From: Chlamydiae bacterium RIFCSPLOWO2_12_FULL_45_20
GTDB lineage: Bacteria; Chlamydiota; Chlamydiia; Chlamydiales; SM23-39
NCBI GenBank assembly: GCA_001796285.1
Contig: MGMD01000024.1
Span: 4,404-68,403 of the forward strand
DNA length: 64,000 nt
Reading direction: 5' to 3'
Part shown: positions 59,332-64,000 of the stretch, piece by piece
Numbering within the stretch: position 1 is the stretch's first letter
How the letters are laid out: each line of letters opens with the position of its first letter
Program-made: the position numbers and the translations under genes
Notes under the pieces: generated by a model
The model's input: only the letters and a program-made list of their open reading frames with translations
Told to the model about the DNA's origin: nothing
Databases searched by the model: none

Positions 59332-60138
59332 CTACGGATCTAAAGAAAGCTCTTTGGAACGCACCATTGCGGCGAGAAAAACCTCTGCTAATGCCTCTAT
59401 AAGCTTCAGTTCTTTCATTTTTTTCAGCCCCACTTCCGTCACTCCTTGCGGAGTTGCGATGCGTGCCAGGAGCTTTTGAGGGGAATGGCCTTTCACAACC
59501 ATTTTTGCAGCGCCAAGAAACGTTTGCGCAGTAAGTAGAAGAGATTGATCGGGAGATAGCCCTTGAGCTTCGCCCATTTGCGCCACACTTTCGATCAGCC
59601 GAAACACAAAGCCGGGGCCACTTCCAGCAATAGCACACGCTATATCCATGAGTTCTTCTCGAATCTCCAACACCTTCCCCATGGAGCCAAACAACCTTTT
59701 GACAAGTTCTTGAAACGCCAAGGTTACACCTTTTGGAAAAACGAGTGTCGTCATCCCCTCTGCTACACCTGCGGCTAGATTAGGTAAAGCTCGGCATAGC
59801 TGTCCTTTCCAGAGATGTTGGTAGTAGTCTAACTTCAGGCCAGCCAGCACCGTGATAAGCATTTTCGAAGGATCATATTCCTCCACTTTTGTCAATACCT
59901 CTTTCGCTTGATGGGGTCTCACCGCTAGGATCAATAGATCTGAATGTGTTACAAGATTTTTGAGACTCGTCGCCGTTATACCGTAGAGCATCTCATTTTT
60001 TTTCGCTCGGTCCGGGTCCCTTTGGTGGAATTGCACCTGAGAGCGGGGGAGCAACCGAGCGTTCTCCATGGCCTGAAAAAGGATTTGGGCCATATGTCCA
60101 AACCCAATAAATCCCAAGCGGCAATCTGAAATCTTCAT
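59332..60138 (-). CDS. proC: Pyrroline-5-carboxylate reductase
   Basis: LGFIGFGHMAQ, ILAVRPHQ, GSGPGFVF and TPQGVTEVGL. Confidence 0.9.
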   Translation of the reverse strand: MKISDCRLGFIGFGHMAQILFQAMENARLLPRSQVQFHQRDPDRAKKNEMLYGITATSLKNLVTHSDLLILAVRPHQAKEVLTKVEEYDPSKMLITVLAGLKLDYYQHLWKGQLCRALPNLAAGVAEGMTTLVFPKGVTLAFQELVKRLFGSMGKVLEIREELMDIACAIAGSGPGFVFRLIESVAQMGEAQGLSPDQSLLLTAQTFLGAAKMVVKGHSPQKLLARIATPQGVTEVGLKKMKELKLIEALAEVFLAAMVRSKELSLDP

Positions 60139-60265
60139 TCAACAAAATCTAAGGAAAATTTCTTTTTTTGTCATGAGTTTGTTATAACGGTAAAATCACC
60201 CATCTATTACAATGACGATCAATTGATGTTTTTGAAGAAATTGTCTCGAGAAAACAGGGGGGGAG

Positions 60266-63046
60266 TTGTTAAAATTCTTTCAAAAAGCATTTGGTCTTTA
60301 TTCCGGGGATTGGGCGCAAGCCCTGAGATTCACAAGGCTCGCCGCCCTTTGGGCTTTCGGTAGCTCATGCCTCGACACTCTCTCTGACGGCCTTTTTCTA
60401 GAACAAGTGGGGGCTGGGTCTCTTCCAAACGTCTATCTTTCTATTGCTTGCGGGACTATTTTTGTGTCCACCCTCGTCCTTTATAGCTTAAGGCACACGA
60501 GCCCCTATCGAATTTTAACGACAGCAATGGTTCTCGGAGGATCGATCTGTATCAGTGCCGCGATCTTTCTCGAAACCTCTCCGCCGGTTTGGTTTTGGTA
60601 TGCGATTAAGATCGCGGCAAGAATGTTTTTTGCCGTTATGATCGCCTGTTCTTGGACCTTTACAGATCAGTATCACGACCTTCAGGATGCCAAAAGGGTC
60701 TATTCCATCTACAGTGCGGCCTACTTTTTTGGAACGATCATTGCAGGTACTGCGATCAATTTATTTCTTGCATCCATCGGAGTTCGGGGGCTGTTACTCT
60801 TGGCTGCTGGGTCCATTTCGCTGGCTCTTATAGAAGCTCGGAATATTGCCCACAAAACCAAGGCTGTCCATGATGACACAATAGAAGGGATTTTTTCTGG
60901 GAGCCGCGATACCTTTACTTCTCTTATCAAGTTGATCACCCGATCTCGTTTTGCCATCGTCCTTCTTCTTTTGAGCCTCTTTTTACAGCTGATGGTTACG
61001 GTAACCGAATTTAACTACATGGAAACCTTTGGGAATTACTTCGCATCGACCTCAGGAGAGCTCAGCGAGGGTTCTATCGCGATCTTTTTAGGGAAATGTC
61101 GAGCCATTATTTCTGCCTGTAATATCATTATTGGCATTTTCTTCTATGGTAGATTCGTCCGGAAAATGGGGCTAAATAACATCATTTTGGTCACTCCGCT
61201 TTTCTTTTTTGGCGTCTACTCAGGCTGGATTTTGCAAAATGCCATGTGGCTTGCGGTGCTTGGGCTCATCGCCGTGGATGGGGTTCTTTTTACCATCGAG
61301 GACAACTGTTTTAATCTTCTTTCCAACGCGGTTCCCTCGAAGCTTAAATCCAAAGTGAGAATCATCAACGACTTTTTCTTCGAACCTATTGGCATGCTCC
61401 TGAGCGCTCTTCTTCTTTTTGCTCTTTCAGATGGCAGCCGCTGGCTGGGGATGGTATTAACGGTCATCACCTTAACTTTAGCCCTAATTATTAAATCGAT
61501 CTATTCCAAAGCTATCATGCAAAATTTGAAAGAAAATGCGCTGCACTTTGAAAAAAAAGTCCAAAGCTGGCTTTATTCGATGACCCGAAGAGAACAAAGG
61601 GAAAGCAAAAAAGATATTTTAGCGGCGCTTCGTTCTCCTTCTGAAGAGACGCAGCTTCTGGCCATCGAGTCTCTTCTCGACCTTTCTCTCACTCCGCCTC
61701 AAATCCTTAACGCGGCACGAAGGTTTAGCACAGCTGCAAAAATCCAATTTTTGCGGCTCATCGATCAAACTCCTTTTGGCAATGACTCGAGAATTCTTGA
61801 AATGATCGATACTTGGACAGATGAAAGCGAATCCAAGGAACTCGGCCGACGGGCGTATCTGTACTTAGCAAAAAGGGGTCTTTTAAACCCCGAAAAAGTG
61901 GAAGATGACCTGGGCCACCCCGACCTTTTCCTAAGGGGCGCTGCGATTTTAACTATGAAAAAATCGCTTGCACAGCAATCTTTTGACACAGCAGCACTCA
62001 ACCGGACGATAGCATCAAAAAAGCTCGATCTCATGCTCAAATCCTCGCACATCGATGAGATCAGCATGGGACTCGATATCCTTGCGGAAGAGCCATCGTT
62101 AGAAACGGCAGAAAAAGCCCTTCCCTTTTTGTCTCACGAAGCTCTTGTGGTCAAGCGGGCGGCAGCTCGCTGTCTTGCCCGTCTTTCTGACAAACGACTC
62201 TCCCGCCATGCCTTCAGGCTACTCGAAGTTCTCGAAGAGGCAAAAGATAACACCTTACGCCTTTCTCTTTTAGAAACCCTTGGGAACATTTCTGATTCGA
62301 CAACGACCAAAGAAATCCTTCTTGCTAGCGTCTATTTGAGACCCAACGAACGAAGAAAAGCAGAAAAAATTTTAGTAAAAATGGGTCTTAAAATCGTCCC
62401 TCTTCTCATTAGTTTCACAAAAGATATAGGCCTTCCAGAAAGGGCAAGAGTTTTAGCTGGTAAAATTTTAGGCCAGCTCGCTTTACCCCAGCTACAAGCG
62501 AATCTCCCAGACATCCTAGACATTGAAATAGAGCGTGCCTATTTTTACTTTTACTTTGGCCACACGATCCAAAAAAAATACCCTCTCTATGATCTAAATA
62601 TGCTCGAAAGCGCCCTTTTAACCGGCTACCAGTCGGTGATCGACTTCATTATCCATCTCCTCGGTGCCGCAGGCTCCTCTGAAGATCCTGAGCTAATCGT
62701 TCGGGGTTTACATAGCCGTAATGAGAAAACCCATTCCCATGCAGTGGAAAGTTTGGAAAAAACGTGCGATGTGCGTATTTTTAAGCTGATCGCACCCCTT
62801 TTGGATGACCTTCCTTTGGAAGATAAAATGGCGGCCTGTCTCAAATGGCAAGGAGACTATCCTGAGCTCAGCCTCTCTGAACTCCTTTCCAAACTCGAAC
62901 AATCCCCTTCCCTTTTTGACCGAGTGGTAGCCGTTCGCCTCAAGGCACAATTAAAAATGCCGAACTGGCGTGAAGAACTCCGCGAACAGATGAAACACTC
63001 TGATGAAAATTTCCACCAATTTGCATATGAGCTATTAGAGTTATGA
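60266..63046 (+). CDS. TLC/NTT-like transporter fused to a C-terminal HEAT-repeat domain
   Basis: The N-terminal region of about 430 aa is polytopic (about 12 TM, FTDQYHDLQDAKRVYSIYSAAYFFGT). The C-terminal region of about 480 aa holds repeated helical units (LRSPSEETQLLAIESLLDL, ALVVKRAAARCLARLSD, TLRLSLLETLGNISD, ERARVLAGKILGQLA, EKTHSHAVESLEK). The track start is a TTG abutting a G7 run. Confidence 0.85.
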   Translation: MLKFFQKAFGLYSGDWAQALRFTRLAALWAFGSSCLDTLSDGLFLEQVGAGSLPNVYLSIACGTIFVSTLVLYSLRHTSPYRILTTAMVLGGSICISAAIFLETSPPVWFWYAIKIAARMFFAVMIACSWTFTDQYHDLQDAKRVYSIYSAAYFFGTIIAGTAINLFLASIGVRGLLLLAAGSISLALIEARNIAHKTKAVHDDTIEGIFSGSRDTFTSLIKLITRSRFAIVLLLLSLFLQLMVTVTEFNYMETFGNYFASTSGELSEGSIAIFLGKCRAIISACNIIIGIFFYGRFVRKMGLNNIILVTPLFFFGVYSGWILQNAMWLAVLGLIAVDGVLFTIEDNCFNLLSNAVPSKLKSKVRIINDFFFEPIGMLLSALLLFALSDGSRWLGMVLTVITLTLALIIKSIYSKAIMQNLKENALHFEKKVQSWLYSMTRREQRESKKDILAALRSPSEETQLLAIESLLDLSLTPPQILNAARRFSTAAKIQFLRLIDQTPFGNDSRILEMIDTWTDESESKELGRRAYLYLAKRGLLNPEKVEDDLGHPDLFLRGAAILTMKKSLAQQSFDTAALNRTIASKKLDLMLKSSHIDEISMGLDILAEEPSLETAEKALPFLSHEALVVKRAAARCLARLSDKRLSRHAFRLLEVLEEAKDNTLRLSLLETLGNISDSTTTKEILLASVYLRPNERRKAEKILVKMGLKIVPLLISFTKDIGLPERARVLAGKILGQLALPQLQANLPDILDIEIERAYFYFYFGHTIQKKYPLYDLNMLESALLTGYQSVIDFIIHLLGAAGSSEDPELIVRGLHSRNEKTHSHAVESLEKTCDVRIFKLIAPLLDDLPLEDKMAACLKWQGDYPELSLSELLSKLEQSPSLFDRVVAVRLKAQLKMPNWREELREQMKHSDENFHQFAYELLEL

Positions 63047-63477
63047 AAAGTTTAATTGAACGAGCTTTTTTTCTTAAAAAAACGCGCCTTTTTTCTCAGC
63101 TAGACCTCGAGATTCTGCTCGCTATTGCGGAAAAACTGCATGAAGATGACTACGACAAGGACGAAAAAGTATTTACTCCAGGCCAAGTGGCCAACCGAGT
63201 ATACATGATCGCATCTGGAGCCGTAGCCATCTTCTCTCACAACTCTATAAAAGAGCTTGCTGTGGGAGATTTTTTTGGGGATGAATCGCTCTTCAATGAT
63301 CAGCCAAGGGAGTATACGGCCATCTGTGCTAGTGACACTATTCTCCTAACGCTTTCAAGAAGTCATCTTCTTTCCATTATTTCAGAATGCCCCAGCGTAG
63401 CGGTGCAGCTCTTGCAATACTACTCGCAAAAACTTCCCTGCCGCCATATTGAAAAATCGATGGAGATCGAATCATGA
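63043..63477 (+). CDS. Stand-alone cyclic-nucleotide-binding domain protein
   Basis: 144 aa with FLKKTRLFSQL, GQVANRVYMIASGAV, FFGDESLF and REYTAICASDTILL. ATGA overlap with the upstream stop. Confidence 0.85.
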   Translation: MKSLIERAFFLKKTRLFSQLDLEILLAIAEKLHEDDYDKDEKVFTPGQVANRVYMIASGAVAIFSHNSIKELAVGDFFGDESLFNDQPREYTAICASDTILLTLSRSHLLSIISECPSVAVQLLQYYSQKLPCRHIEKSMEIES

Positions 63478-64000
63478 AAATCCGCACCCGGCTTCTACTC
63501 TTTCTCCTCCCGACACTCGTTTGCAGTATTGCACTGGTTTCGATTCTTTTGTCCTATAACTGGTATCGAGAAATTGTGGAAGGATTTCAAACGCGACTCA
63601 AGGCCGCCGTTATTACCACAGCCATGCTACAACCTTCGGAGGAGACTTTAAAGATCATTCGAGATCGGTTGGAAGTCACAGACCTTTACCACGTTCCTCT
63701 CAATACACCTAATATTGATACAATTCCCAAACAGCTACATATTACTCCGATTTATAAAGCAAAAGACGGCAATAAAGTCATGACGGGATTTGCTCCCATC
63801 CATGACTCGAACGGACACATCTCTGGGCTCATGGCAGCCGATATCAACGTGAGTCTGATCGACAACAAGTTTCACGAAAGCCTCTATCTCATTCTCATTT
63901 GCGCAGGGGTTACAATTCTCATCGTCGTCGCAACGCTTTTTGTCATCGCTAATAAAATCTCCATCCCTGTGGCAAGACTGAATAACTCAGCTCTTGCGAT
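63474..64000 (+). CDS. Membrane sensor protein (signal anchor, extracytoplasmic domain, TM, start of HAMP), 3' end truncated by window edge
   Basis: ATGA overlap with the cNMP gene. MKIRTRLLLFLLPTLVCSIALVSILL, then about 130 aa of soluble sequence, then a second TM (LYLILICAGVTILIVVATLFVIA) followed by NKISIPVARLN. The layout resembles chlamydial RsbU-type sensors, but the output domain is not in the window. Confidence 0.65.
   Translation, partial: MKIRTRLLLFLLPTLVCSIALVSILLSYNWYREIVEGFQTRLKAAVITTAMLQPSEETLKIIRDRLEVTDLYHVPLNTPNIDTIPKQLHITPIYKAKDGNKVMTGFAPIHDSNGHISGLMAADINVSLIDNKFHESLYLILICAGVTILIVVATLFVIANKISIPVARLNNSALA

Follow-up and report, generated by a model that had tools for sequence, protein, structure and literature searches.

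A coupled NTT-HEAT, cyclic-nucleotide-binding-domain and HAMP/PP2C-fold gene trio in Chlamydiota: a candidate membrane signalling or regulated-transport unit

The window considered here is a stretch of 64,000 nucleotides from the Chlamydiae bacterium RIFCSPLOWO2_12_FULL_45_20 (GenBank assembly GCA_001796285.1, contig MGMD01000024.1, positions 4,404 to 68,403). At its 3' end lie three consecutive genes, called genes 1, 2 and 3 below, that encode a nucleotide-transporter-like protein with HEAT repeats (NTT-HEAT), a small cyclic-nucleotide-binding-domain (cNBD) protein and a membrane sensor with a HAMP linker. They are arranged as follows (aa, amino acids):

60266..63046, + strand: gene 1, NTT-HEAT protein, 926 aa
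63043..63046, + strand: ATGA overlap of the gene 2 start and the gene 1 stop
63043..63477, + strand: gene 2, stand-alone cNBD protein, 144 aa, with a PF00027 match
63474..63477, + strand: ATGA overlap of the gene 3 start and the gene 2 stop
63474..64000, + strand: gene 3, 5' part, 175 codons (aa 1-175 of 430), cut by the window end

Both overlaps, noted in an earlier sequence-only reading of this DNA, can be read directly in the sequence, and the three genes are shown to form one operon that is predicted to be translationally coupled. Several metagenome contigs from groundwater and soil carry the identical locus, among them NCBI GCA_001796235.1, and the 3' end of gene 3, giving the full length of 430 aa, was recovered from such identical contigs; the identical sequence turned up in DNA metagenomes only (groundwater, soil). 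The domain content proposed earlier for the three genes was right, as judged by Pfam, profile searches, AlphaFold models and hydropathy.

Gene 1 is divided into two parts:

60266..61555, + strand: NTT-like domain of 12 transmembrane (TM) helices with the MFS fold, aa 1 to ~430 (AlphaFold helices, Foldseek, PDB profile)
61559..63043, + strand: HEAT/PBS-type helical-repeat solenoid, aa ~432-926 (Pfam HEAT_2, alphaRep matches, all-helical model)

This division into a 12-TM NTT-like domain and HEAT-like repeats, already seen in the sequence-only reading, was recovered by several methods. Pfam detected HEAT_2 at aa 617-699 (E=2.3e-07, 31.5 bits against a cut-off of 27.7), and the family profile matched the solved Chlamydia pneumoniae NTT1 structure 9j3n (E=1.8e-5) as well as alphaRep/PBS-type HEAT repeat proteins in the PDB (E=6.8e-21). 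The AlphaFold model (predicted local distance difference test score, pLDDT, 75) contains about 12 TM helices at aa 13-427, followed by ~495 aa of helical repeats, and its top three Foldseek matches were AtNTT1 (9j3m, 9j3l) and C. pneumoniae NTT1 (9j3n), with E=1e-6 to 3e-5 and a TM-score on target of 0.61-0.65; generic MFS carriers (NorA, VMAT) trail these NTT structures by a small margin. Family models of the transporter part respond faintly: gene 1 gave no match to Pfam TLC (PF03219) at E<=1 and a match to MFS_1 of 22.6 bits, under the cut-off, while precomputed PF03219 matches exist for many of its close homologues, most of them faint, and distant relatives in which NTT, HEAT and cNBD are fused score 20.5-25.6 bits against a PF03219 cut-off of 21. 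The close homologues, one of which is annotated as an Npt1/Npt2-family transporter, are ~926 aa long and abundant in Chlamydiales and Parachlamydiales bins; their identity of 65-83% suggests strong selection.

The TM4 region of gene 1 reads W130-TFTDQYHDLQDAKR-VY, with R144 directly before VY, and fits the NTT motif W-x-F-x-[ND]-[EQ]-x(6-7)-A-[KR]-[KR]-x-Y; compared by eye, it parallels FWGFANEVTTVDEAKRFY of a canonical NTT in the same window (19321..20853). D134, K143 and R365 are invariant in the family alignment, and the C-terminal part of the solenoid is strongly conserved (EIERAYFYFYF..SVIDFIIHLLG..ESLEKTC). The NTT domain has 29% identity over 416 aa with the C. trachomatis NTT-HEAT protein WP_009871581.1 (BLASTP, E=4e-47), and a protein search with the N-terminal domain of the C. 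trachomatis protein gave 3 matches. Judged by sequence and predicted fold, gene 1 belongs to the NTT-HEAT clade that Major et al. described in 2017 (PMC5381601), since it has the NTT fold and motif, HEAT repeats and homology to WP_009871581.1.

Two further carriers of this family occur in the window. The canonical NTT, of 510 aa, lies at 19321..20853 (+), and a 431-aa NTT4-like carrier with 24-27% identity to gene 1 residues 40-307 lies at 21043..22338 (-). Together with gene 1, three branches of the NTT family are thus found in one 64-kb stretch.

Gene 2 had been described as nothing but a cNBD, and this description stands: its 144 aa match cNMP_binding (PF00027) with E=1e-15 and 57.9 bits (Pfam cut-off 27.5), and its closest solved relatives in a PDB profile search are the domains of PKG, PKA-R and CRP. 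Alignment with PKG and PKA places the equivalent of the phosphate-binding cassette (PBC) as follows:

63274..63321, + strand: PBC equivalent, gene 2 aa 78-93, reading F-G-D-E-S-L-F-N-D-Q-P-R-E-Y-T-A

The canonical PBC is G-E-x-A-L-x(4)-P-R-[STA]-A-[ST], in which the Glu binds the ribose and the Arg binds the phosphate. The 75 sequences that were aligned comprise the window protein, the protein of L007 (a relative with 76% identity) and those 73 orthologues that are complete in the set of 80 chlamydial loci described below. F78, G79, E81, F84, R89 and Y91 are invariant in all 75. The position of the canonical Glu is occupied by Asp in 63 and by Glu in 12, and the near-universal Ala two residues past the Arg is replaced by the invariant Tyr, while the residue right after the Arg varies. 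The pocket appears to be under selection but does not have to bind cAMP or cGMP.

Gene 3 has the order TM1, small Cache/PDC domain, TM2, HAMP, signalling helix and PP2C fold. The signal anchor, extracytoplasmic domain, TM segment and beginning of a HAMP linker that the sequence-only reading had recognised in its 5' part were all located: TM1 at aa 7-25, the PDC domain, the HAMP domain (PF00672) at aa 159-205 (E=9.6e-08), and the following element:

63891..63947, + strand: TM2 of gene 3, aa 140-158 (hydropathy), with HAMP directly after it from 63948

Pfam gave weak Cache/PDC matches for the 5' part, and the PDB profile matches were to TM2-HAMP of Tsr and NarQ and to nothing else. With the full-length protein, Pfam and NCBIfam returned HAMP alone and recognised no output domain, and PF07228 (SpoIIE) gave no match at E<=1; this family was touched, weakly, by 3 of 36 orthologues (best E=0.0014). 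Matches of the C-terminal profile to TNF-ligand structures in the PDB were dismissed as spurious. Since sequence methods yielded HAMP only, a fold search was needed for the output domain. The AlphaFold model of P0121, an orthologue with 76% identity (pLDDT 85.6), shows TM1, the PDC/Cache-like domain, TM2 and HAMP and, after them, a long helix and a C-terminal alpha/beta domain. Foldseek matched this last domain, at E-values between 1e-7 and 7e-6, to structures with the PP2C (alpha-beta-beta-alpha) fold, namely 3ke6 (RsbU domain), 6k4e (SiaA), 5mqh (SpoIIE), 3f79 (RssB) and 3w40 (RsbX); the sensor domain matched CitA, DcuS and Tlp3.

The catalytic site was assessed against a canonical Cache-HAMP-PP2C protein from L091, a contig of non-chlamydial origin that is described below, which carries VGGDLYDF, VGDVSGKG, YTDGVTEA and ADDIT. 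In the hhalign alignment with its PP2C domain (E=1e-4), GGDLYD corresponds to G-L-L-L-D in gene 3, so that the first Asp is Leu; GDV corresponds to x-E-A, with an invariant Glu for the Asp; and T-D-G corresponds to N-x-G, with a variable non-acidic residue for the Asp. In the family alignment, the positions of the lost Asp residues are all unconserved, and the C-terminal DD motif varies. The PP2C-like domain is predicted to be catalytically dead. With loss or change at three positions of catalytic Asp residues, gene 3 is most likely a protein of RsbU architecture with a degenerate catalytic site, a pseudophosphatase similar to CT589 of C. trachomatis, and its output domain most likely serves for binding and not for catalysis. 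The analogy with chlamydial RsbU that had been drawn from the 5' part holds for the fold of the output domain (RsbU/SpoIIE/SiaA type) and fails for the catalytic Asp residues, lost here as in CT589; extension past position 64000 did reveal an output domain with the PP2C fold, and its phosphatase site is the part predicted to be inactive.

It is very improbable that gene 3 still encodes an enzyme, i.e. a HAMP-responsive, non-canonical PP2C-type phosphatase that would use the invariant Glu and other acidic residues and act on an RsbV-like protein or on the carrier. Such an enzyme would agree with the PP2C fold, with the invariant Glu at the GDV position and with a near-invariant Asp in the G-D motif, and CT259 of C. 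trachomatis, which has Asp-to-Glu changes, is still deemed potentially metal-binding (PMC4552016). The same work regards CT589, with similar losses, as inactive (PMC4552016), and gene 3 has Leu for the first Asp (GD), a variable non-acidic residue for the TDG Asp, no conserved C-terminal DD motif in its family and, for the window protein, no PF07228 match. Gene 3 also varies on its input side. Its 60 complete orthologues fall into 23 short, 27 medium and 10 long forms; in the short forms, 23 of the 60, the periplasmic domain is missing, while the TM hairpin, HAMP and the PP2C-like domain are kept. Thus, the input can arise within the membrane or the cytoplasm.

The neighbourhood of the trio was surveyed in one genome per GTDB species. 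The best 80 loci, with 38-78% protein identity, all belong to Chlamydiota; Chlamydiaceae fall outside these 80. NTT-HEAT and the cNBD gene are an obligate pair: gene 2 lies right after gene 1 in 74/74 assessable loci, with a 4-bp overlap in 60 of the 74, and the reverse search from gene 3 found gene 2 directly upstream in 34/34 assessable metagenome loci and gene 1 wherever the contig reaches that far. The linkage, which the sequence-only reading had said would speak against its idea if it were not conserved in relatives, is therefore conserved. Of the 72 loci that could be assessed for gene 3, 62 have it after gene 2, and in 52 of these 62 the two genes overlap by 4 bp. At such protein identities, the recurrence of both overlaps goes beyond chance. 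The full trio is present in Waddlia and in many Parachlamydiaceae bins.

In Estrella lausannensis, a 159-aa open reading frame (ORF) without a Pfam match occupies the gene 3 position (L093:10266-10745) and overlaps the cNBD gene by 4 bp. It may be a remnant of gene 3 or a replacement partner.

In distant relatives of gene 1, 1045-1117 aa long, the cNBD is joined to the end of the HEAT part, and six contigs with such fusions from outside Chlamydiota (36-62% GC) were inspected. A cassette recurs in five of them, in which the fusion is accompanied by a sensor-HAMP protein of 708-755 aa and a cNBD-like protein of 125-140 aa; a Cache-HAMP protein of ~460 aa then follows in L091, L097, L139 and L140, and L096 ends before that position. 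Several junctions of these cassettes are ATGA overlaps. The chlamydial cNBD has similar HMM (hidden Markov model) scores against the fused cNBD and against the small cNBD type. The ~460-aa proteins are homologues of gene 3 (hhalign 99.5%, E=2.9e-22), beginning with their first residues (MKIRT...) and running over the sensor and HAMP as far as the first strands of the PP2C-like part; this homology was obtained with a four-sequence profile, and the hhalign comparison of the C-terminal profile of gene 3 with single non-chlamydial HAMP proteins was uninformative. Genes for STAS and RsbW-like (HATPase_c_2) proteins lie nearby in L091 (394-3022) and L139 (1-3029), together with a canonical Cache-HAMP-SpoIIE phosphatase in L091, and a HAMP-guanylate/adenylate cyclase lies nearby in L096 (3236-4729). 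This cyclase and the L091 phosphatase share the sensor-TM-HAMP module with gene 3 (tblastn). The same parts are shown to re-associate across phyla, near partner-switching and cyclase genes.

One explanation of the trio would be that of a conserved neighbourhood only, with three independent products and with overlaps that reflect the compaction of Chlamydiota genomes. Chlamydial genomes are indeed compact, 4-bp overlaps are common in bacteria and gene 3 can be lost; we see little chance, however, that this is the whole explanation, given that the linkage of genes 1 and 2 is unbroken (74/74), that the reverse search from gene 3 gave 34/34, that genes 1 and 2 are fused in other phyla, and that the partners re-associate in genomes with 36-62% GC that are not compact symbiont genomes.

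Our best reading, to which we give about an even chance of being correct, is that of a stoichiometric membrane complex for signalling or regulated transport. The three products would assemble in the membrane, with the cytoplasmic HEAT solenoid as the docking platform for the PP2C-like domain and for the cNBD protein, which in other phyla is covalently fused to it. Through its TM/HAMP module, gene 3 would integrate whether the cNBD has bound its ligand, in which transport state the carrier is and, in forms with a Cache domain, the presence of a periplasmic ligand. The PP2C-like domain would act through binding and not through dephosphorylation, and would be likely to have as its partner either a protein of the STAS/RsbV type from a partner switch or the HEAT arm of the carrier itself. 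As a whole, the unit may couple the uptake or sensing of host-derived solutes to gene regulation or to the activity of the carrier. The idea of a stoichiometric unit, put forward in the sequence-only reading, is backed by the near-universal linkage, the conserved coupling and the natural NTT-HEAT-cNBD fusions.

Several observations weigh against this complex, or against parts of it. The first group concerns the signal. In gene 2 the PBC, which the sequence-only reading had left to a proper alignment, is recognisable and keeps the key Arg89, yet it appears non-canonical (Glu to Asp, Ala to Tyr), and the small cNBDs of the non-chlamydial cassettes are without the PBC Arg altogether; the Tyr in place of Ala and these Arg-less domains suggest that the ligand may be something other than a cyclic nucleotide. 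The chlamydial loci, out to 7 kb, and the 64-kb window showed no gene for a cyclase and none for STAS/RsbW. The second group concerns the third partner. Linkage of the whole trio holds in most loci and breaks in the 10 of 72 where gene 3 is missing and unrelated genes or an acpP-fabGDH operon come directly after gene 2; in the Chlamydiaceae-like locus L141 there is likewise the pair only, with the fab operon directly 3' of gene 2. These losses imply that the pair can work without gene 3. The comparison across phyla rests on the small sample of six contigs, and the C-terminal PP2C-like part of the ~460-aa homologues aligns with gene 3 through the first strands only. Finally, no functional paper on the NTT-HEAT clade later than PMC5381601 was found in a search that had subscription journals outside its reach.

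The main rival is a regulated carrier and nothing more: gene 1 would be a transporter of nucleotides or other solutes that genes 2 and 3 gate through the HEAT arm, the cNBD reporting a cytoplasmic nucleotide and the Cache-HAMP-pseudoPP2C protein a periplasmic cue, with no downstream signalling. We consider this possible but on the unlikely side. Gene 1 retains the NTT signature motif with the charged residues D134, K143 and R365 and has ATP/ADP translocators as its best fold match, cNBD and carrier are fused in other phyla, partner-switching genes were not found beside the chlamydial operons, and tuning of uptake by cAMP was proposed by Major et al. (PMC5381601). A general role for a periplasmic cue is contradicted by the 23 of 60 gene 3 proteins that have no periplasmic domain. 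Strong selection on the PP2C fold, and the presence of STAS/RsbW-like genes in two distant loci and of a canonical SpoIIE in one of them, suggest a connection with partner switching.

A more far-reaching version of the signalling complex is quite doubtful in our opinion. In it, an ancient sensory-transporter module shared across phyla would survive in Chlamydiota, in reduced form, as the trio. The module would consist of an NTT-like carrier with a HEAT arm, one or more cNBDs, and a Cache/HAMP protein, or two of them, bearing a binding domain derived from PP2C. The carrier would act as a transceptor, whose transport or ligand state would be relayed, together with a nucleotide-like second messenger, via the HAMP pseudophosphatase to the RsbV/RsbW switch. 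In Chlamydia, this switch controls the availability of the main sigma factor. If this version were true, uptake of host metabolites would be wired directly to the chlamydial developmental programme.

Whichever form the unit takes, NTT carriers are a hallmark of chlamydial energy parasitism, and the NTT-HEAT branch is conserved in organisms that range from human pathogens to environmental lineages and include cyanobacteria and oomycetes. An RsbU-like, putative HAMP pseudophosphatase is tied to this branch in the majority of environmental chlamydiae as well as in unrelated bacteria. A signalling or regulated-transport complex would be the first concrete, testable hypothesis for the NTT-HEAT family. 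Tractable candidates are C. trachomatis CT234/CT235 and the cultivable Waddlia or Parachlamydia with the full trio.

The assignment of CT234/CT235 comes from gene order. Locus L141 has the order SDF, SNF, two small ORFs, NTT-HEAT, cNBD, acpP-fabG-fabD-fabH, recR and bamA, and its upstream part matches a C. psittaci contig that ends inside the NTT-HEAT gene. We take the synteny of L141 and L088 to be that of C. trachomatis CT230-CT241, so that the two small ORFs would occupy the place of incB/incC, and CT234 is annotated as an MFS transporter in one published annotation. From the synteny, this annotation and the C. trachomatis gene map, the C. trachomatis NTT-HEAT/cNBD pair is probably CT234/CT235. 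CT590, which lies beside CT589/RsbU and whose 954 aa would fit in size, was rejected as the NTT-HEAT protein of C. trachomatis: the ct590 transposon-junction peptide RVQDL (aa 123-127) is absent from the published NTT-HEAT N-terminus, and CT590 was published as Chlamydiales-specific, without cyanobacterial matches.

Upstream of the trio lie two further features:

60168..60196, + strand: sigma-70-like promoter candidate, TTGTCA, 17-nt spacer, TAAAAT (a consensus match alone)
59332..60138, - strand: proC, the divergent upstream neighbour of gene 1

The promoter candidate sits inside the 127-bp gap between proC and gene 1 and corresponds to 7126-7154 on contig L001, whose coordinates equal those of the window minus 53042. 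Gene 1 starts with TTG, preceded by a Shine-Dalgarno-like run, GGGGGGA. Beyond the window end, an AT-rich gap of 118 bp separates gene 3 from a 180-aa ORF (L001:11843-12385), whose middle part resembles a coiled coil and whose C-terminus has a hydrophobic anchor. In L007, the relative with 76% identity, the same place holds an ORF of about this size, but its sequence similarity to the 180-aa ORF is undetectable. Being unconserved in relatives and set apart by the gap, the 180-aa ORF was ruled out as a member of the unit. On L006 (1750-4529), an ANAN16 scaffold of the same population, gene 1 is split into ORFs of 533 and 382 aa; the split probably stems from a frameshift or a fault in the assembly and does not mark a real pseudogene, since other contigs with the identical locus keep the intact 926-aa gene.

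In four of the six non-chlamydial loci (L091, L094, L097 and L140), the fusion gene is adjoined by an arginine/ornithine decarboxylase (PF02784/PF00278) or by an arginase with a pyruvoyl arginine decarboxylase (PvlArgDC). MTS-type methyltransferases also recur near these fusions. The decarboxylase and arginase neighbours, with proC in the window, may give a hint of the substrate or pathway (polyamine, arginine, proline).

The first two genes of the trio have a precedent. Major, Embley and Williams (2017, Genome Biol Evol, PMC5381601) described NTT-HEAT fusions with a cNBD often encoded downstream or fused, and speculated on control by cAMP; in their list the fusion is confined to Chlamydiaceae and Estrella, compared with the 80 chlamydial species found here. 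The trio resembles their clade in the NTT domain with a C-terminal HEAT part and in the cNBD gene immediately 3' of it, and adds to it the HAMP/PP2C-like third partner, the ATGA coupling, the non-canonical PBC and the partner-switching and cyclase neighbours. The unit, of which the sequence-only reading was aware of no functional description, thus has a partial precedent in the literature. For the third partner, its predicted pseudophosphatase nature, the coupling statistics and the extended cassette, no description was found in the literature (again with subscription journals outside the search). The third partner and its conservation therefore appear to be what is new here, while the pair of genes 1 and 2 has been known since 2017.

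Among chlamydial proteins, gene 3 is closest in its build to RsbU (CT588) and its paralogue CT589 of C. trachomatis, which are membrane-spanning, with a periplasmic sensor and a cytoplasmic PP2C-like domain, and for RsbU a HAMP domain was also noted (Thompson et al. 2015, PMC4552016). CT589 is without metal-coordinating residues and regarded as inactive (PMC4552016). Gene 3 shares the membrane sensor-HAMP-PP2C build and, like CT589, appears to have no metal-coordinating residues; the match is one of described architecture. Its sensor differs from theirs in being a much smaller single PDC domain, or absent, and has no match to the solved RsbU periplasmic domain. Furthermore, gene 3 is coupled to a cNBD gene and a carrier gene, whereas CT588 and CT589 are adjacent paralogues elsewhere in the genome. 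Gene 3 may add a second class of chlamydial PP2C pseudophosphatases beside CT589.

A TM-HAMP-PP2C build is also found in SiaA of the Pseudomonas aeruginosa SiaABCD system, whose structure 6k4e is among the best structural matches of gene 3. SiaA is a HAMP-PP2C membrane phosphatase that acts on the STAS-like SiaC and feeds a diguanylate cyclase. Gene 3 differs from it in having neither the catalytic Asp residues nor SiaB/C/D-like neighbours. The anti-sigma adaptor RssB, of which the P. aeruginosa structures 3f79 and 3eq2 are among the matches, offers an example of the PP2C fold as a protein-binding module, but it is a soluble response regulator with no sequence relationship to gene 3 beyond the fold.

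The trigger transporters form the last group of comparable systems. In DctA-DcuS, BceAB-BceS, UhpC-UhpB and LysP-CadC, a sensor can read the state of a carrier via TM contacts. Their sensors are histidine kinases or ToxR-like proteins, and neither a carrier of the NTT type nor a HEAT arm, cNBD or pseudophosphatase is known from any of them. By analogy, the trio resembles these systems in that the genes for a carrier and for a membrane sensor occur together, and reading of the carrier through the membrane would fit the gene 3 variants that have no periplasmic domain.

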